This document shows, piece after piece, positions 3,295-56,729 of a DNA stretch of 64,000 nucleotides. This DNA comes from Escherichia phage vB_EcoM_ULIM9. The notes beneath the pieces are model-generated. The model did no database searches. It was given only the letters and a program-made list of their open reading frames with translations, and was not told the DNA's origin. Position numbers and translations under genes: made by a program. Location: the sequence record OQ850288, one strand, 5' to 3'. Numbering within the stretch: position 1 is the first letter of the stretch; every line of letters starts with the position of its first letter.

Positions 3295-3806
3295 TCATCA
3301 CCTTTATTAGCAAACTCTTTGTGTAAACGTTGACGTTCCCTATTTACAACCTCTGCTGCTTCAGCAATCGTGTCATAGTTGCCGAAGAAGTAAACCCTCT
3401 TCTTAAAAGTTATCTGTGTAGCCCACTTACCATACTGTTTATTGTAGTACACACCTTTAACACCTGATTTATTGTTCTTATTGAGCAATCTATTACATTG
3501 GTTCTCTGATAACGTACATGCTCTAAGATTTACCCAGCGATTATCTAATGTTACATGATTTTTATGGTCAACACACTCAGGGAGGTAACCATCCATATAC
3601 AGAACAGCTAGTGTATGTGCATAATAACCCTTACCAAACAAATAAATTCTGATGTAACCTTTTAAGTTTGTACCTGCAACAGAGCCAATTTTTGTGTGTC
3701 TAGCAGACTTCTTAATCCAAGTAAAGACCCCTGTTTCGGGGTCATAGTGCAGGTATTCTTTAAGAGTTTGTTGGGTTAACATTTGGTGTCCATCCATACT
3801 TGTCAA
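3291..3806 (-). CDS. HNH homing endonuclease with AP2-like DNA-binding domain
   Basis: YLHYDPETGVFTW N-terminus, HNH core ...CVDHKNHVTLDNRWVNLR..., AP2-like GVKGVYYNKQYGKWATQI; true start probably an internal Met (about 3782) because the 5' end overlaps the exonuclease gene. Confidence 0.7.
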   Translation of the reverse strand: MTSMDGHQMLTQQTLKEYLHYDPETGVFTWIKKSARHTKIGSVAGTNLKGYIRIYLFGKGYYAHTLAVLYMDGYLPECVDHKNHVTLDNRWVNLRACTLSENQCNRLLNKNNKSGVKGVYYNKQYGKWATQITFKKRVYFFGNYDTIAEAAEVVNRERQRLHKEFANKGDE

Positions 3807-4806
3807 AAGTGAAATCGTCTTTCTTGTTTCTTTCCTGATAAGCTAAGAAAAAGTGTTGCTGCATTAACTCTAAAGGTGTTCTGGTAATTGTTTGACCATC
3901 CCATGATACATAAGTGTATGACTCTTTCTTAGCATAAAGTTCATAGATAGCATCAAGACACTCTTTATAAGTATTTTTACCTTCAAGGGCTTTCATTACA
4001 GTAGCCTTACCAACGCCCTTTAAACCAAAATAATTATCAGCATTGTCACCAGCCACAGCTTGATAACAAAGGAATTTAAAACCTACACCAACTGTCTTCT
4101 TAGCTTTTGGTGTTGATTTTATTGGGCAATCCCAAATTTCACCTACGTTGTTGTCAGCAATGAAAATCAAAGGCGACTTTTCATAGGTCATATCAATGCA
4201 GTAAGTCCCTTCAGCTTGGCGAAGGTCTTTATCAATACTCATCAAGGCAGCCTTTTTACCCATCTTTTCAGCTTTAGCAATAACGATAGAATCGGCTTCA
4301 AATCCATCAAGAATTAGTTTGAACTCTGGTCTTGACAGAAGGTATTCACGACAAGCGACTAAGTGTGTTGGTGTGACGGCATCTTTACGGTTACCTTGAT
4401 ATTGGTGCTCAAGACCTTTAATGTCTTTATGCTTATGTACACCTTTCTCTGTTAAATAACCTACCCAAGTTCTCTCTTTACCAACCACCTTAAGCCATTC
4501 CTGAAGAACCTGTTGAGTAGCCATGATAGCTTCTTTTTCACTCTTAGCTTCTTTCCAAGTCTGTCTTTCCCATTCATCTTCATCAAATGTCAGGCCAAGT
4601 TCTTCCACAAGGATTCTCTGGTCTGCTAACCATCTTGCAGCATCTTTCGCATTATCAAATGGCTCAGACTCTTCTGCTGTGAGTTTATTGACATATTTAT
4701 ATTTTGCTTTCTCAACTACACAAGCCCCTTTATAGGCAATACTATCAGAGTCAATAAAGACATGTGTAACTGAATCGGGAAGCTTTGTTAATGTGTACTT
4801 CTCCAT
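3760..4806 (-). CDS. 5'-3' exonuclease / flap endonuclease (RNase H-like)
   Basis: 348 aa; acidic active-site clusters (VFIDSDSIAYKG, AGDNADNYFGLKGVGKAT helix-3-turn-helix motif) typical of phage FEN/RNase H. Confidence 0.7.
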   Translation of the reverse strand: MEKYTLTKLPDSVTHVFIDSDSIAYKGACVVEKAKYKYVNKLTAEESEPFDNAKDAARWLADQRILVEELGLTFDEDEWERQTWKEAKSEKEAIMATQQVLQEWLKVVGKERTWVGYLTEKGVHKHKDIKGLEHQYQGNRKDAVTPTHLVACREYLLSRPEFKLILDGFEADSIVIAKAEKMGKKAALMSIDKDLRQAEGTYCIDMTYEKSPLIFIADNNVGEIWDCPIKSTPKAKKTVGVGFKFLCYQAVAGDNADNYFGLKGVGKATVMKALEGKNTYKECLDAIYELYAKKESYTYVSWDGQTITRTPLELMQQHFFLAYQERNKKDDFTFDKYGWTPNVNPTNS

Positions 4807-4868: not shown

Positions 4869-5726
4869 TTAATCTTCTGTATCGAAGTCTTCATCTTCTT
4901 CGTCATCTGGGTCTGGCAAGTCTTCATCATCGCCATCATCAGAATTATTCGAAGGTTTGTGGTCTGTTGCGTCTTCTTCAGTGATTTCACCGTTATCTTC
5001 AACACCATCAAGACCAAGCATAGCCAGTTCGTCTTCATCCAGTTCAGGTTCACCATTAGCACCGTTACCACCAGTGTAAGGTACAAGAGTATCAATGATA
5101 AACTGTTCCTGAATAGGTTTTGTCAGAACATTGTTCTCAAAAGTGTAGAAGTGAGTAGAAAGAATCACACTACCAAAAGAACCGTTACCAACTGCAATAT
5201 CTGGATGAATTACATCATAGTTCTTGTCATCTTCATGTTTATCAGATGCTTGAGCTTTGATTTTCTTCATTGGCTGCTTAACAGCTACACGCTTACCATT
5301 TACTTCTTCAATCAGCATTACAGGGAATGACTGTTTAGCTGTCCATACAGCACCATCCTTATAAGCTGCTGCACGACTTACTTTCAAGATGTAGTAAGTG
5401 TCTGCTTCAAATGGTGGTTTGCAGCCAAACTTCTCTTCGAAGTCATCTGCATCAACTGCTTCAGTAGTAACTTTATCCCACCCTTCTGGATTTTTCTTAG
5501 ACTTAGTAAACTCTTTAAAGAGCTTGTTACCGTCTTCTGCCAGAATTGATACGCTGTAGTTACAGTCTTTTCCTGGGAATTTCTTATCAATTGATTTACC
5601 TTTTCCCGGACGTGGTGAAGTGTTCAGGTAATAAAACCAGACATCTTTCAGCAGGTAACGCAGAGTTTGACGTTCAGTACCGTTGTACTTCTCTACCGGA
5701 GCTTTCATTTTAACAACTTTAGACAT
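4869..5726 (-). CDS. putative single-stranded DNA-binding protein with acidic C-terminal tail
   Basis: 285 aa; C-terminal 40 residues almost entirely D/E ending DEDFDTED, as in phage SSBs; sits in the replication module. Confidence 0.4.
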   Translation of the reverse strand: MSKVVKMKAPVEKYNGTERQTLRYLLKDVWFYYLNTSPRPGKGKSIDKKFPGKDCNYSVSILAEDGNKLFKEFTKSKKNPEGWDKVTTEAVDADDFEEKFGCKPPFEADTYYILKVSRAAAYKDGAVWTAKQSFPVMLIEEVNGKRVAVKQPMKKIKAQASDKHEDDKNYDVIHPDIAVGNGSFGSVILSTHFYTFENNVLTKPIQEQFIIDTLVPYTGGNGANGEPELDEDELAMLGLDGVEDNGEITEEDATDHKPSNNSDDGDDEDLPDPDDEEDEDFDTED

Positions 5727-5798
5727 TATTTAAACCTCTATCTCAATTTATGAAGAGTACCAATTCTAATTTGTTGATACTCTATTGTCAAACATTAA

Positions 5799-5948
5799 TT
5801 ACTGGAAGTTGTGCTTATCTTTAGAAGCTGCTTTACGTGCAGTTTTTCCAGTTCTTACACGTTTTTCTTCATAGTATTTTGCTGGTTTTCCAGCAGTGGC
5901 TTTTAAGGAATCCCCAAAAACTTTTTCAAATGCTTTAGAGTGTTTCAT
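5799..5948 (-). CDS. small basic protein (49 aa), below ORF-track size cutoff
   Basis: Hand translation MKHSKAFEKVFGDSLKATAGKPAKYYEEKRVRTGKTARKAASKDKHNFQ; ATG at 5946-5948 overlaps the stop of the upstream gene (ATGA). Confidence 0.35.
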   Translation of the reverse strand: MKHSKAFEKVFGDSLKATAGKPAKYYEEKRVRTGKTARKAASKDKHNFQ

Positions 5949-6238
5949 GATATTCTCCGATATACTTGATATTCAAACACATTTTCTTTCATTATAAACA
6001 GCCAACCAATATTATGCTGAGGCAGTGTAATGATGACTGTAATCATACTTTGATGGAACTGTTGTTCTATTTCAACTTCTCCATCGCATTTCATGTGGAG
6101 CATTCTATAGAACCTATCAATCTTTGTCAAACACTCTTCATGAAATTTATTTAAACTTTTTTCTTCAAATAAGGGTGTGAACCCCTCTCTTTTATAGCTA
6201 TCACTCAGTTTCGAACGGGCAGTCATCTGCATCCTCAC
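5945..6238 (-). CDS. hypothetical protein (97 aa)
   Basis: ORF track; start overlaps primase-helicase 3' end. Confidence 0.35.
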   Translation of the reverse strand: MRMQMTARSKLSDSYKREGFTPLFEEKSLNKFHEECLTKIDRFYRMLHMKCDGEVEIEQQFHQSMITVIITLPQHNIGWLFIMKENVFEYQVYRRIS

Positions 6239-8192
6239 TTAATACAGGTGGAATCGTTGAGCTTTGACGCTGCTCTTCAGTATAGACTTCACCAGTCTCA
6301 CGGTCAAACACTTCATCCTCATAATGTGGCAAAGAGTCATCGTAATGGTCTTCAGCTTCACCAATACCAAACTGTTGGCGAATATTTTCTGCTGCACCAT
6401 CAATGTCAACTCCACAACCAGAGGCTTTAATGAGACGTCCTGTATCTGGATTGTACCAAGTATGACCAGCAATACCTGTTGACTTACCGTGACGACGGCA
6501 TTTAGTTAACTTGATTTTTGTCAAGTTTTTCTTAACAGGGTCTGGGTCAACCTTGTTACGCATTAACAGAATGTTGTTCATAGAAATCTGGAAATACGCA
6601 CCAGAACCTTTAATATCCTCTTCAGAGATATCTCCACCTTCGGAGTTAGCCTTCTGACCACCTGCACTCTTACGAACGTGACAGACGTTCACCTGTGCAT
6701 ACTGGTAGCGTTTGCAACGACGCAATAGCTCAGACAAAACTTCTTCTTCATCCGTATCAGAACGTGACAGGGCTAACGTGATAGGGTCAAGAATGATAAT
6801 CTTACAGTCTAAACTGTTAACAAGATAGTCAACAAACTCTAGCAGGTTATCTTGGTCAATTGCCCCTTGATGGTCTACGATGTGGATACGACGACCTTTA
6901 GACAGTTCTGCGTGTGCTTCCTTCAATTCATCCCAATCACGTTCGTCATAAGGAATCTCAGAAATCTGCTTGCTCAGGTGGATTGCACAAAGCATCTCCA
7001 TCAACTCTTCATAGGTATCTTCTACAGGAATTACACCAATATTGTAATCGGTATCTTTCCAAGCAGTATAAATCATTTCACGAGTGTATGCAGATTTACC
7101 CACTGAAGATGGTGCTGCCAGAGTTGTAATCTCACCTAAACCGTAACCACCATAAGTCAGTCTGTTCAAATCCCCGAAAGATTCTGGGAAAGGAATCAAT
7201 GGAATCTGACCACGATTCTTCATTGCCTCAAAACCATCTGCGAAGTTCTTGATACCAGCAGGACAGTAACGAGGTGCATTGTAGATACGCTGCTTAAACC
7301 CCTCCAGAACTGTATCTTTCTCTTTATAGAACTTTGTCCACCACTCGTTAAGGTCTTTTACACCTTCTGGATACTGGAATAAACGAACCTTCTCAATAGG
7401 TAGGATACCAGCAGCCTCTTTAGTGGCTTTAGCACCTGCTTCATCGTTATCAAAGCACAAGTAAATCTCATCAAATGATGTAATGTACTGATAGTTATCC
7501 TTGATAGACTTGATGTTTGCACCTGATGGAACAGATACGTGACAGTAATTCTTACGACGAGACTTATCTTTAATCGCAAGAGAAGTCATATAGATTGCTG
7601 TCGCACATTCCATCTCACCTTCCCAGATGAATAGACGGTTACCACCTTCTGGAGCAATCCATGAACCGAACATTGCCAGTTCGCCTTTAATGTCTCCAAC
7701 ACCACCTGAGAAGTCTTTTAGCTTACCTCGTAGGTGTTCTTTTGGATGGTCTTCTGGATAGCGATGACGTACACGGTAGCCAACGTGCTCTAGCTTACCA
7801 TCTTCATTACGTTTGTAAGTTGGATAGAAATGCGCATCAATTTCACCGTCACTGTCAATGTCAACCTTGATACCCAATCGCTCAAGAACTTTTGCAGGAA
7901 TCTTCCTGTCTTTTAAGTCCATTGCTTCAAGGTTTTCTTTTACATCGTCTAAATCCATTCCACGGAAAGTACGGTTTTTATTGTCTGAACCAGTAGAATA
8001 AGTGCTCACGATTTGTCCTTTATCAAAATCCCACTCTGGGAAACCTTTGTTACAACTAAAGCAAGTCATTGAATAAGAATCATCGTCATGATGATAGATT
8101 GAACCAGCATCTGATGAACCACAACGTGGACATGCGCAATGACCAACAAACTGACCAGCCTCTTTCAATTTACGACCTTTAGACATTAGCAC
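6201..8192 (-). CDS. DNA primase/helicase (T7 gp4-like)
   Basis: 663 aa; N-terminal zinc ribbon (CPRCGSSD...CFSCNKG), TOPRIM-like LCFDNDEAGAKATKEA, helicase Walker A LAAPSSVGKSAYT and Walker B IIILDPIT. Confidence 0.8.
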   Translation of the reverse strand: MLMSKGRKLKEAGQFVGHCACPRCGSSDAGSIYHHDDDSYSMTCFSCNKGFPEWDFDKGQIVSTYSTGSDNKNRTFRGMDLDDVKENLEAMDLKDRKIPAKVLERLGIKVDIDSDGEIDAHFYPTYKRNEDGKLEHVGYRVRHRYPEDHPKEHLRGKLKDFSGGVGDIKGELAMFGSWIAPEGGNRLFIWEGEMECATAIYMTSLAIKDKSRRKNYCHVSVPSGANIKSIKDNYQYITSFDEIYLCFDNDEAGAKATKEAAGILPIEKVRLFQYPEGVKDLNEWWTKFYKEKDTVLEGFKQRIYNAPRYCPAGIKNFADGFEAMKNRGQIPLIPFPESFGDLNRLTYGGYGLGEITTLAAPSSVGKSAYTREMIYTAWKDTDYNIGVIPVEDTYEELMEMLCAIHLSKQISEIPYDERDWDELKEAHAELSKGRRIHIVDHQGAIDQDNLLEFVDYLVNSLDCKIIILDPITLALSRSDTDEEEVLSELLRRCKRYQYAQVNVCHVRKSAGGQKANSEGGDISEEDIKGSGAYFQISMNNILLMRNKVDPDPVKKNLTKIKLTKCRRHGKSTGIAGHTWYNPDTGRLIKASGCGVDIDGAAENIRQQFGIGEAEDHYDDSLPHYEDEVFDRETGEVYTEEQRQSSTIPPVLSEDADDCPFETE

Positions 8193-43605: not shown

Positions 43606-43681
43606 GTAAAATAACTTGGAGAATCCGAAGGGACTCGAACCCTTATAAACCTGTTTTGCAGACAGGCACATAGCCATTTCT
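43606..43681 (-). tRNA. tRNA-Cys (anticodon GCA), CCA encoded
   Basis: Hand fold: acceptor GAATCCG/CGGATTC, anticodon loop CUGCAAA, T-arm with TTCGAGT. Confidence 0.55.
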
Positions 43682-43685
43682 GTCA

Positions 43686-43778
43686 CGGATTCAAATTGGA
43701 GGAAGATACCAGACTTGAACTGGTACACCGATTTCTCAGCTACTGGCAGTTTAGCAAACTGCTCCCTTACCTTTTAGG
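43686..43778 (-). tRNA. tRNA-Ser (anticodon GCU), type II long variable arm
   Basis: 93 nt; acceptor GGAAGAT/ATCTTCC, anticodon stem GCAGT/ACTGC with loop UUGCUAA, long variable arm, T-loop TTCAAGT. Confidence 0.55.
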
Positions 43779-43791
43779 GTTAATCTTCCAT

Positions 43792-44526
43792 TTATTTCTG
43801 TAATGCGCTCTTCATTTCTGGTGTTGCAATAGTGTCAATCACACCAGTTTTACAGGCATCGTCAAACCAGTCTGGTAAGATACCTGCTAAGAACCCATTG
43901 ATATTCGTTTTAAGGTACTCTGCAATAAGGGCAGCTTCTTCTTCAATCATCTGCACAACTTCATCTGCATAAGCTGTAATCTTTGAAATACCTTCATTAA
44001 TCTTACTGACAGCTTGGTTAGCTAAATCAGAAACAGTATCAAGACCCTTATCAATAGCATCTTGTAAGTCACTTAACACACCGTTAACACTGTCTAGTGT
44101 GCTGTTAATCATGTCAATAGCTTGCTGACCATACTCTGTAGCAACACCCATAATACCACTAAATGGTGTACAACCAACTTGTTCTCCTGCTGCACCCATA
44201 ACATTGGAATACCCCTTTGCTACCTGCATACGTGATGAAAACTCATCAATAGACTTTTGACCATAGTCTGTTAGGGTCTTAGTAGTTGCTGTAGTGCTTG
44301 TCAGGCTTGTTGTAAAGCTGTTTAGAAGGACTGTTGTAAGTCCAGCAGCAACAAGCTTCTCCTTCATTGTAGGGTCTGTTACAGAGCTAATAGAGCTTAC
44401 AAGTGATGTAGAGGCAGCTACGGTTCCACCGAGAACTGCTGCACCAGTAATAAGTGGGTTAGAAAACCCTTTACCGGTTTTTAAGAGATTAAAAATCTCC
44501 TTACCTTGTTCTGTCATCTCTTTCAT
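43792..44526 (-). CDS. hypothetical S/T-rich protein embedded in tRNA array
   Basis: ORF track frame 43792-44742 trimmed to Met at 44524-44526 (MKEMTEQ) because the upstream 72 codons run through two tRNA genes. Confidence 0.5.
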   Translation of the reverse strand: MKEMTEQGKEIFNLLKTGKGFSNPLITGAAVLGGTVAASTSLVSSISSVTDPTMKEKLVAAGLTTVLLNSFTTSLTSTTATTKTLTDYGQKSIDEFSSRMQVAKGYSNVMGAAGEQVGCTPFSGIMGVATEYGQQAIDMINSTLDSVNGVLSDLQDAIDKGLDTVSDLANQAVSKINEGISKITAYADEVVQMIEEEAALIAEYLKTNINGFLAGILPDWFDDACKTGVIDTIATPEMKSALQK

Positions 44527-44542
44527 TAAGCACCTTTGAAAT

Positions 44543-44618
44543 TGGTAGTCCAGTGGGATTTGAACCCTCTTCTCATGTTTTTCAGACACGCGCTTTACCA
44601 TATAAGCTACTTGGACTA
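44543..44618 (-). tRNA. tRNA-Phe (anticodon GAA)
   Basis: Anticodon loop CUGAAAA, T-arm GGTTCAAATCC. Confidence 0.5.
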
Positions 44619-44623
44619 TAAAT

Positions 44624-44699
44624 TGGGGTGACCTACGGGATTTGAACCCGTATAGACCATGTTCACAGCATGGGTCATTACCATTTATGATAAGGCCAC
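44624..44699 (-). tRNA. tRNA-His (anticodon GUG)
   Basis: Anticodon stem CCATG/CATGG with loop CUGUGAA; T-arm ACGGG/CCCGT. Confidence 0.55.
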
Positions 44700-44730
44700 A
44701 TTTAAGGACTCTCGTAAGAACCCTTAGAAG

Positions 44731-44806
44731 TGGCAGCGGCATAAGGATTTGAACCTTAATAGGACAGCTTCAGAGACTGCTGCATTGCCAGTTATGCTAT
44801 ACCGCT
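44731..44806 (-). tRNA. tRNA-Gln (anticodon CUG), tentative
   Basis: D-arm GCAT/ATGC, anticodon loop CUCUGAA, T-arm TAAGG/CCTTA. Confidence 0.45.
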
Positions 44807-44811
44807 AAAAT

Positions 44812-44882
44812 TGGTACTCCATATCGGATTCGAACCGATACATAACACAGATTTTAAGTCTGGCCTCTCTGCCAATTGGAGT
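44812..44882 (-). tRNA. tRNA, anticodon read as UAA (Leu-type) but short variable arm; isotype uncertain
   Basis: 71 nt; T-arm ATCGG/CCGAT perfect; anticodon loop CUUAAAA. Confidence 0.4.
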
Positions 44883-44892
44883 AATGGAGCAT

Positions 44893-44968
44893 TGGCGGGG
44901 GATGTTGGAATTGAACCAACTTCTTCGATTTCAAAGACCGAGGTTTTAACCTTGTAAACTAATCCCCT
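44893..44968 (-). tRNA. tRNA-Gln (anticodon UUG), tentative
   Basis: D-stem GTTT/AAAC, anticodon loop CUUUGAA, T-arm GTTGG/CCAAC. Confidence 0.45.
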
Positions 44969-44976
44969 TTAATTCT

Positions 44977-45534
44977 TTACTTTCTCAGTGGATGAATAAA
45001 GAATGCCAACATAACTCTTTCCCTTGAGAATGCTCTTTCTTCTGGGACAACACTTTTTAGTTTCCATCCAATATAAATTCTCCAGTAAAACTGTTTACCA
45101 AAGACTTTAATTGATGGGATAAAAGCGAATAATCCCCAAGCATTACTGTTCCACATTAGGAGATAACCAGTCTGATTATCTTCAGGGTCAGAACTTACGT
45201 TGATATTACCTTTCCACTTAGTAACATCTTTGACATCTCTTCCTAATACATGGTAAGAGAAGTTATAAGCTTTGTTTCTCCAGAGCCATCCGACTCTCTG
45301 CATGTAGACACCAAACTTACCAATCTTTCTAATCTTAGCCCATCTTTTAACGTGACCTTCATCACCATCAATCGGGTTGTCATAGGTTTCCATCCATCTG
45401 AATCCAAAAGGTAGATGTCCTTTCTTCTCACTGTAGAATGGAACTACGAAAGGTGCTAAGATGACTGCTAGGGTTGCTGCAAATGGTTCTAGTAAAGCTA
45501 GGAAAATCCATGAAGCATACTTCAAATATCTCAT
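44977..45534 (-). CDS. membrane protein embedded in tRNA array
   Basis: 185 aa; N-terminal hydrophobic helix (WIFLALLEPFAATLAVILAPFVVPF). Confidence 0.5.
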   Translation of the reverse strand: MRYLKYASWIFLALLEPFAATLAVILAPFVVPFYSEKKGHLPFGFRWMETYDNPIDGDEGHVKRWAKIRKIGKFGVYMQRVGWLWRNKAYNFSYHVLGRDVKDVTKWKGNINVSSDPEDNQTGYLLMWNSNAWGLFAFIPSIKVFGKQFYWRIYIGWKLKSVVPEERAFSRERVMLAFFIHPLRK

Positions 45535-45553
45535 CTAAATAGCCTCTTAAAAT

Positions 45554-45631
45554 TGGTGTTCCAAGACGGATTCGAACCGTCACTAATACAAGGTTTGAGC
45601 TTGCATCCTCTGCCAATTGGGATACTGGAAC
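45554..45631 (-). tRNA. tRNA, anticodon read as CAA; isotype uncertain
   Basis: T-arm GACGG/CCGTC; anticodon stem GCAAG/CTTGT with loop CUCAAAC. Confidence 0.4.
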
Positions 45632-45632
45632 A

Positions 45633-45707
45633 TGGTACTCACTAAAGGACTTGAGCCTTTTTCTTCATCTTGTAAGGGTGATGTTTTACCATATAAACTA
45701 AGCGAGT
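45633..45707 (-). tRNA. tRNA-Val (anticodon UAC), tentative
   Basis: D-stem GTTT/AAAC, anticodon loop CUUACAA, T-stem AAAGG/CCTTT. Confidence 0.45.
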
Positions 45708-45802
45708 GTGAAAGAGGTCTGAAGTTGTGCCGCTAACTCAACTCCGTGGAATTTGTTACGGTCTTCAGTTGACACCAGCGGTCTTTCACTTGACCTCTGA
45801 AT

Positions 45803-45879
45803 TGGTGCTGCTCACAGGACTCGAACCTGCATTTCCATCCTTACAAGGGATGTGTAATAGCCAATTATACGAAAGCAGC
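45803..45879 (-). tRNA. tRNA-Thr (anticodon UGU)
   Basis: Anticodon stem CATCC/GGATG perfect, loop CUUGUAA; T-loop TTCGAGT. Confidence 0.55.
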
Positions 45880-45885
45880 TTTATT

Positions 45886-55713: not shown

Positions 55714-55928
55714 AAAAGTTAACTACAGTTGAAGACTACTATAAACTGTCCCTGTTAGAACAGTATCGCAGGAGCCAGAATATCAGAAAATGCTATGGTA
55801 AACACGCTGAAGGTGACTTTTACCGTTGCTACGATGCAGATTTAAAAGGTGTAACACCTAGAGGGAAAGTACTGCAAAGACTTGTTGACCTTGAGTGGGA
55901 CAAACGATTGAGAGGGGTTGGGAAATGA
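55710..55928 (+). CDS. hypothetical protein (72 aa)
   Basis: ORF track. Confidence 0.4.
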   Translation: MKKLTTVEDYYKLSLLEQYRRSQNIRKCYGKHAEGDFYRCYDADLKGVTPRGKVLQRLVDLEWDKRLRGVGK

Positions 55929-56368
55929 TTTACGAAGAAAGATACAAGATAGATTTTCAGGATACTCGCCATCATACTTCTTTAAGAGTGACCAAACCAA
56001 ATGGAGAGACTGGTATCATAGCACATTTTGGTGGTGATTATTGGTACGGTACAGGATGCTTTGAAGGTTACACTCAAGAATACTTGAAAGCTTTTTACAG
56101 AGACTTTGCAAACGACTACAACAGGGTTGTTGATGAAAAGAACAAGTGTATTAAGCATGAACACCATGCCAGAGGCTGCCTAAGTATTGTTATGGTACTT
56201 GCGTTCTTCTTAGCAATGTTACTGGCAGTATCAGCAATTAGCTGCATAGCTCAAGATTTGACAATTACACAGATTACTGCAAAGCTACATGATATCTGGT
56301 ACTTGTATGCTGTCCCTTTAGCTGGTATCATCATCTCACTAATTAGGTTCAGAGTTCATAAGAAATGA
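55895..56368 (+). CDS. membrane protein with two C-terminal transmembrane helices
   Basis: 157 aa; LSIVMVLAFFLAMLLAVSAISCIA and YLYAVPLAGIIISLI hydrophobic segments. Confidence 0.45.
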   Translation: MGQTIERGWEMIYEERYKIDFQDTRHHTSLRVTKPNGETGIIAHFGGDYWYGTGCFEGYTQEYLKAFYRDFANDYNRVVDEKNKCIKHEHHARGCLSIVMVLAFFLAMLLAVSAISCIAQDLTITQITAKLHDIWYLYAVPLAGIIISLIRFRVHKK

Positions 56369-56504
56369 CTTAAGGATTCTGAGGTTAAACTTGAAGAGGT
56401 AAGTAAAGAATGCAACCTACAATTATAGCTGTATGTGTTCGTTTTGCAATCGCTGAAATGATTAACAAGGCAATCTTGAAAGATGCCTATGGAGAAACTA
56501 AGTA

Positions 56505-56729
56505 ATGATTAAGACACCTGTACCAATTTTTGGATTTCCTTCTATAGAGGAATTTAAAGTTTATCTTGACAAAAACTTCTATAATGAACAGCCTGTTACT
56601 TTGCTGAAGAGTGACTTATCAGAGCTTCTTGATATGGTTATCAAGGTAACTTCTGAGAAGGAACCTGAGCAGAAAGCTGAGAAGAAGACTAGTAAGAAGT
56701 CCGATAAGAAGACTGAAAAGTCTGAGTAG
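56505..56729 (+). CDS. hypothetical protein with K/E-rich tail (74 aa)
   Basis: ORF track. Confidence 0.4.
   Translation: MIKTPVPIFGFPSIEEFKVYLDKNFYNEQPVTLLKSDLSELLDMVIKVTSEKEPEQKAEKKTSKKSDKKTEKSE

Follow-up and report, generated by a model that had tools for sequence, protein, structure and literature searches.

A conserved 49-codon gene in the replication region of Felix O1-like phages

The closest described counterpart of the gene considered here is ORF103 of phage Felix O1, which supplementary table 1 of the Felix O1 genome paper places at 68198-68347, with a product of 49 aa and a pI of 10.2 (PMC3185647). The same paper predicts a promoter, P102, and assigns the flanking ORFs 101 and 104 by RT-PCR to the same transcript class (the tested set being without ORFs 102 and 103); gp103 is absent from its main text, including the virion proteomics tables (PMC3185647). 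In phage UAB_Phi87 the counterpart is orf91 (PMC4837284). A literature search, limited in extent, found no transcriptome or Ribo-seq study of a Felixounavirus.

Phage T7 provides a second point of reference. Its gp4 primase/helicase gene is followed by two small non-essential genes, gp4.3 (70 aa) and gp4.5 (89 aa), which are placed like the two genes – orf93 and orf49 – that follow the primase/helicase gene at the present locus: the resemblance is positional only, with hhalign probabilities of 0.4% (orf49 against gp4.3) and 0.25% (orf93 against gp4.5). T7 gp4 and gp2.5 dock onto basic patches through acidic tails that contain an aromatic residue, and these tails are resembled by those of the primase/helicase and of orf285, the gene downstream of orf49. 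A further parallel is with the ATGA pairs of phage and bacterial operons, usually read as translational coupling, in which stop and start codons overlap by four bases and the Shine-Dalgarno (SD) sequence lies within the 3' end of the upstream gene. The start of orf49 has both features; it differs from the classic coupled pairs in that its SD is free in the predicted RNA fold, and dependence on the upstream gene is thus not implied.

The DNA analyzed (hereafter the window) is a stretch of 64,000 nt from Escherichia phage vB_EcoM_ULIM9 (OQ850288). A 1.2-kb piece around orf49 has matches in 258 phage records, almost exclusively from Felixounavirus (Ounavirinae), and is closest to Escherichia phage VpaE1_ev78 (up to 99% identity); on sequence grounds the window is a Felixounavirus (Felix O1-like) genome. 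It also carries a cluster of 21 tRNA genes on the minus strand (43617..48295), as expected in Felix O1-like phages. The ORF list, PHROG matches and the annotations of relatives together give the minus-strand order dNMP kinase, a 66-aa ORF, primase/helicase, orf93, orf49, orf285 and exonuclease, the start of the primase/helicase being taken from the 1986-nt CDS annotated in relatives. Within the T7-like replication region, orf49 accordingly closes the string of cistrons dNMP kinase, primase/helicase, orf93, orf49. Coordinates are collected in Table 1.

Table 1. Genes and sequence elements of the window referred to in the text (position 1 is the first letter of the window).
Feature	Position	Strand	Basis
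T7 gp4-like DNA primase/helicase	6201..8186	-	PHROG 239, E 2e-184; relatives' annotations
orf93 (Felix O1 ORF102, PHROG 4982), 93 aa	5945..6226	-	PHROG match, annotations
orf49 (Felix O1 ORF103 / FelixO1p245, PHROG 4424), 49 aa, basic	5799..5948	-	ORF listing, PHROG, orthologs
orf285 (Felix O1 ORF104, PHROG 3877), acidic, 285 aa	4869..5726	-	ORF listing, PHROG
T7 gp6-like exonuclease	3760..4806	-	PHROG, annotations
ATGA stop/start overlap of orf93 (TGA) and orf49 (ATG)	5945..5948	-	sequence
GGAG, SD of orf49, 6 nt before the ATG, in the last orf93 codons (Arg-Arg)	5955..5958	-	sequence
Putative promoter TTGACC-17-TATACT, 53 nt upstream of the orf93 ATG	6279..6307	-	promoter scan; equivalent to Felix O1 P102
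Putative promoter, exact TTGACA-17-TAGAAT inside orf93, 154 nt upstream of the orf49 ATG	6102..6130	-	promoter scan
Putative promoter, exact TTGACA-17-TAGAAT just past the orf49 stop, upstream of orf285	5763..5791	-	promoter scan, 11/12
Inverted repeat AGAGTA..TACTCT overlapping the promoter-like site at 5763..5791	5755..5782	-	sequence
Second small gene, 31 aa, PHROG 6279	56410..56505	+	ORF listing, PHROG, codon pattern
TGA nonsense codon (CGA in Felix O1) in the ORF27-like membrane-protein gene 55925..56368	56366..56368	+	alignment

A first-pass annotation of the window had described orf49 as an unannotated ORF for a lysine/arginine-rich peptide that overlaps the upstream stop codon and fills a gap of about 220 nt. 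A frame of 49 codons running from ATG to TAA is indeed present, on the minus strand, which the first-pass annotation had left unstated, and its product (MKHSKAFEKVFGDSLKATAGKPAKYYEEKRVRTGKTARKAASKDKHNFQ; 5.6 kDa, net charge +9, pI 10.2) is basic as claimed, with 14 K+R against 5 D+E. The overlap is likewise as described: the ATG of orf49 (5948-5946) and the TGA of orf93 (5947-5945) combine into ATGA. The gap was estimated correctly, in that the spacer between orf93 and orf285 measures 218 nt (5727..5944), but orf49 occupies only 150 nt. The gene is unannotated in so far as it is missing from the track, which applied a size cutoff; most related records, on the other hand, annotate it as a hypothetical protein. 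These include Felix O1, VpaE1_ev78, UAB_Phi87 and Meda (Meda_030, accompanied by an RBS feature), and by tblastn orf49 falls under hypothetical-protein features in wV8. The Felix O1 protein (FelixO1p245, YP_001504375.1) is 100% identical to that of orf49, and the two agree without material difference in position, in length (49 aa), in pI (10.2) and in their overlap with ORF102. Since orf49 has been catalogued from 2007-2010 onwards as a hypothetical protein of the type species, its absence from the track is an ordinary annotation gap and not a new kind of element.

Several features of the start of orf49 bear on its expression. The SD region TATCGGAG and the ATGA are invariant in six aligned sequences (Felixounavirus, Suspvirus, Mooglevirus and two IMG/VR contigs), CGGAG being kept in the same six; the ATGA overlap itself is kept in Suspvirus, Mooglevirus and metagenomic relatives, and an RBS for the gene is annotated in both Meda and Mijalis. 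Pectobacterium phage Wc4-1 differs at this point, having AGAGG followed by TAA, 2 nt and ATG. Among metagenomic homologs GGAG, AGAGG or AAGGG is found shortly 5' of the ATG, and one contig (L061) shows GGAG together with a stop/start overlap. RNA around the start (5900..6010) is predicted to fold less than its shuffles do (z = +1.3); the start region being unstructured, the SD is accessible and coupling need not be obligatory. On this layout orf49 would be translated from its own GGAG within the last codons of orf93, and that the ATGA overlap would allow ribosomes terminating on orf93 to reinitiate at orf49: reinitiation is plausible, independent initiation equally possible.

orf49 could be transcribed by read-through from upstream, and the sigma-70-like sites at 6307..6279 and 6130..6102 may add transcripts of their own. 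The three sigma-70-like sites in Table 1 are consensus matches, that is, putative promoters. Both hexamers of the site inside orf93 are invariant in 21 Felixounavirus loci, and a counterpart is found in Suspvirus/Mooglevirus-type loci (TTGACT-17-TAAAGT in five of six, TTGACG in the sixth) despite differences in the encoded amino acids; this site could be an internal promoter for orf49. The element beyond the orf49 stop precedes orf285 in all seven aligned Ounavirinae sequences, with or without orf49, while its hexamers vary: the -35 hexamer reads TTGAC- in six, among them that of Hafnia phage SarahDanielle (without orf49), and TTGCAA in the seventh, from Erwinia phage M7 (also without orf49). 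The arms of the inverted repeat that overlaps this element (6-7 nt) co-vary, being AGAGTA/TACTCT in the window and GGAGTA/TACTCC in SUSP2 and Moogle-like phages, and the repeat could be an operator or a hairpin. Recurrence of a promoter plus inverted repeat within the window is not above chance (3 matches against 1.2 expected).

Evidence that orf49 is a gene comes from comparisons among phages. The PHROG 4424 profile matches residues 1-49 on positions 1-49 of 49 (E 7.4e-36), and tblastn finds orf49 in 262 phage records, 170 of them at an identity of at least 99%. At the corresponding position, orthologs of 45-46 aa are found in Suspvirus SUSP2 (84% protein identity), in Mijalis (80%) and Sf18 (76%), both Mooglevirus, and in Pectobacterium phage Wc4-1 (57%). 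Conservation of the reading frame in related phages, the check that the first-pass annotation had itself proposed, was found in 18 of 18 distinct homologous DNAs, and when all six frames were compared over these DNAs that of orf49 alone was free of stops in all 18. Variable columns over the first 42 codons of the same 18 DNAs are distributed 11/7/31 over the three codon positions. Comparison with other genera gives a pS of 0.59-0.77 (near saturation) and a pN of 0.09-0.16, with dN/dS at approximately 0.03-0.12; within Felixounavirus pN/pS is 0.064 for orf49, 0.026 for orf285 and 0.016 for the primase/helicase. Conserved parts of the protein are the N-terminal SKAFxxVFGxSxxAT and the basic core KR[VI]RxGKT, and all lineages share the pattern K-x-S-K-[AD]-F-x-x-V-F-G-x-S-x-x-A-T-x-G-[KH]-x-A-x-x-[YF]-x-x-K-R-[VI]-R-x-G-K-T, which is followed by a variable basic tail. 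An AF2 model, of low confidence (pLDDT 67, pTM 0.30), has three short helices.

Length on its own is weak evidence for a gene, because an ATG-initiated ORF of at least 49 codons was found in 151 of 5000 dinucleotide shuffles of the gap (approximately 3%). This frequency, along with the promoter-like sites on either side of orf49, is what could be said for a chance open frame in an AT-rich spacer, the conserved entity being instead a non-coding element – a promoter, a leader or an sRNA. Such an account does not fit the codon-periodic substitutions, the dN/dS far below 1, or a frame that stays open in 18 of 18 DNAs despite saturated synonymous sites, and it is on these grounds that we reject it as very improbable. 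Nor does the RNA favor it: the start of orf49 is less structured than its shuffles, and a search of Rfam with 5600..6300 gave no match above threshold, the best being an S15 leader (E 0.16, below the gathering score) that lies mostly outside orf49. The overlap of the two frames, with orf49 in the same frame relative to orf93 in the window and in Wc4-1, raises the further idea that orf49 is a C-terminal extension of orf93 produced by programmed ribosomal frameshifting at the ATGA. Against this, each orf49 homolog comes with an ATG and an SD of its own, the junction is without a slippery heptamer, and on contig L060 (Logan SRR26282644_116395) the relative frame is different and the upstream protein unrelated; a frameshift fusion can for all practical purposes be dismissed. 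What decides that orf49 is a gene is its conservation. Our best overall explanation, in which confidence is high, is that orf49 genuinely encodes a protein, is orthologous to Felix O1 ORF103 and belongs to the replication region as one of its cistrons, with the layout proposed above.

The family to which orf49 belongs is tiny. A word-indexed search of 5.8 billion proteins yielded 16 clusters, to which an exhaustive HMMER profile search of 1.84 billion representatives added two further true clusters (45-46 aa). Two other profile matches were discarded as repeat-protein artefacts, as judged from their multiple matched stretches and, for one of them (P0020), from its sequence. Scanning of 185,579 bacterial species genomes revealed no copy of orf49, and on present matches the family is confined to virulent Ounavirinae-like phages. 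Three records stand apart by host: GU169904.1 (Staphylococcus phage SA1) and MG065668.1 and MG065664.1 (Campylobacter phages A126 and A132) hold Felixounavirus sequence with 98-100% protein identity to the locus, which suggests chimeric or contaminated deposits.

Gene order around members of PHROG 4424 is the same in Felix O1, Meda, SUSP2, Mijalis, Sf18 and Wc4-1. Four named phages, from Suspvirus, Mooglevirus and the Wc4 group, have annotations in the order primase/helicase, X, orf49, a gene of approximately 285 aa, exonuclease, and three metagenomic contigs (L061-L063) show the same order by ORF size: a primase/helicase-sized ORF, X, orf49, approximately 290 aa, approximately 350 aa. Hafnia phage SarahDanielle and Erwinia phage M7 (Kolesnikvirus) have the primase/helicase directly before a 286-aa gene, leaving no room for orf93 or orf49. 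Since two Ounavirinae lineages are without both genes, the pair is accessory to the replication module, and orf49 would appear to be an accessory gene and not a part of the core replisome. A different context is found on contig L060, which derives from a divergent phage and carries a 46-aa homolog 72% identical to orf49 together with a gp6-like exonuclease of only 26% identity. The neighbors of the homolog are unrelated to orf93 and orf285: the order is exonuclease, an acidic 97-aa protein, then the orf49 homolog, 3' of which lies what looks by eye like a hairpin and T-run, followed by a PAPS-reductase-like gene. Given this context, orf49 appears to move alone and to work without orf93 or orf285.

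The upstream partner evolves in a very different manner. Within the genus the pN/pS of orf93 is 0.40, against 0.02-0.06 for the flanking genes; between genera it is 40% identical to its Suspvirus/Mooglevirus orthologs, and variation is concentrated in residues 44-74. orf93 could be under diversifying pressure. An AF2 model (pLDDT 81) consists of one helix and a four-stranded sheet; Foldseek searches with this model found nothing in the PDB below E 0.13 and, in BFVD, three orthologs plus one weak match to an uncharacterized viral protein (TM 0.43).

What orf49 might do has to be approached from its composition and context. No match was found in Pfam (E up to 1), NCBIfam or PADLOC, and Foldseek comparison of the AF2 model with the PDB gave zero matches. 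The best profile match among PDB sequences, to the ribosomal protein eL39, was rejected (E 0.37 over 14 residues), as was, by eye, a reading of RTGKT as a Walker A motif, there being no Gly five residues before the GK.

We suggest, tentatively, that orf49 encodes a small autonomous binder of a polyanionic and highly conserved target, acting in the replication phase of infection; weighed in favor of this were the pI of 10.2, the net charge of +9 and the replication-gene context. The target might be a host factor or nucleic acid; it might also be an acidic patch on a protein, for example the acidic C-terminal tail that each of the two neighbors, the helicase and the SSB-like protein, carries. 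About equally likely, and overlapping with this suggestion, is that orf49 serves in host takeover or anti-defense – a small protein, made early, that would block a conserved host protein or turn it to other ends, the location in the replication region being coincidental. This we regard as possible rather than probable. The gene is small and found in phages only (0 of 185,579 bacterial species genomes), some Ounavirinae are without it, it has apparently passed from one phage background to another, unrelated one (at 72% identity, where the exonuclease has 26%), it is under the very strong constraint expected of a tight fit to a conserved target, and its partner orf93 is fast-evolving. It is, however, unlike any described inhibitor or defense-related family, and in every genome examined it sits among DNA-metabolism genes; moreover, a host target is already allowed for in the best explanation, with which host takeover overlaps.

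A third account has the products of orf49 and orf93 forming a stoichiometric complex and thus a single unit, as the conserved stop/start overlap and the joint presence or absence of the two genes in the Ounavirinae genera examined might indicate. That the homolog on contig L060 follows an unrelated acidic 97-aa protein, and that between genera orf93 is 40% identical where orf49 is approximately 80% identical, point the other way: the contig and the very different rates of evolution make an obligate complex with orf93 less likely, and we judge it rather unlikely. More ambitious, and quite improbable, is the idea that orf49 is the founder of an undescribed class of basic phage proteins of approximately 5 kDa that pass from one virulent phage to another, unrelated one and influence replication or recombination. 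It is allowed by the contrast between the identities of orf49 (72%) and exonuclease (26%) and by an extreme conservation that fits a close match to a conserved target. Such proteins might grip the acidic C-termini of T7-type helicases, of T7-type SSBs and of the host SSB, tails that serve as interaction hubs, or might neutralize a conserved host factor that binds nucleic acid in defense or repair. Strong purifying selection, restriction to virulent phages and apparent transfer between backgrounds make orf49 a reasonable, low-cost candidate for functional tests; its biological value is modest, and it points to no new mechanism.

Acidic tails are in fact present on both large neighbors of the orf93-orf49 pair. 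The primase/helicase ends, within 6201..6230, in ...DADDCPFETE and orf285, within 4869..4900, in ...EDEDFDTED: in each an aromatic residue is followed by x-T-E (PFETE and DFDTED in the window, PFRTE and PFKTE in Erwinia phage M7). That orf49 would bind these tails is purely conjectural, and phages without orf49 keep the acidic SSB-like tail – M7 keeps that of the primase/helicase as well – which counts against the idea. orf285 itself carries no annotation beyond hypothetical protein in any of the 301 matching records, and gave no match in Pfam, PHROG-SSB or the PDB; hhalign returned a weak match to T7 gp2.5 (E 1.4e-3, probability 17%). It may be a gp2.5-like SSB, and so the unrecognised SSB of the Ounavirinae; because the gp2.5 match is weak, this identity is one that we only infer. 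Separately, a 259-aa protein on contig L060 (2250..3029) contains MDFDDDIPF, the C-terminal tip motif of E. coli SSB, at an internal position 15 residues before its own C-terminus.

The first-pass annotation had also pointed to a small hydrophobic ORF of about 31 aa at 56411-56506 on the plus strand, filling a similar gap. This ORF, whose product is MQPTIIAVCVRFAIAEMINKAILKDAYGETK, is real and has 31 aa, its coordinates being one base lower than given; its hydrophobicity is moderate only, the best 19-residue Kyte-Doolittle window scoring 1.77 and containing Arg and Glu. Residues 1-30 match positions 1-30 of 30 of the PHROG 6279 profile (E 2.7e-23), pN (0.09-0.22) is below pS (0.36-0.92) whichever sequences are compared, and the variable columns number 6, 2 and 14 at codon positions 1, 2 and 3: judged from these substitutions the ORF evolves as a protein and is a conserved gene. 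It is annotated in SUSP2, Mordin and Silverhawkium and absent from the Felix O1 RefSeq record. GAGGT is located 9 nt upstream (56396-56400), and a 74-aa gene downstream (56505..56729) starts within the stop codon, TAA and ATG merging into TAATG. The track's size cutoff has thus dropped at least two genuine conserved small genes from one phage genome.

The gap in front of this second gene is visible, but is in part an artefact of the nonsense codon in the neighboring gene, since a TGA in place of CGA shortens that gene to 147 codons. Twenty codons are lost (Felix O1 ORF27 has 167 aa), and the PHROG 4343 match of the truncated gene covers only positions 1-147 of 167. No suppressor tRNA that would read this TGA is found among the 21 tRNA genes of the window, and none of the GenBank phages compared with 56300..56440 is at least 99% identical. 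The TGA may be a real truncation or a sequencing error: in IMG/VR the surrounding 23-mer has 0 matches in its TGA version and 17 in its CGA version. One apparent annotation gap is in this way traced to a nonsense mutation next door; in relatives, where the membrane-protein gene keeps its full length, its end covers the first 19 nt of the second ORF.
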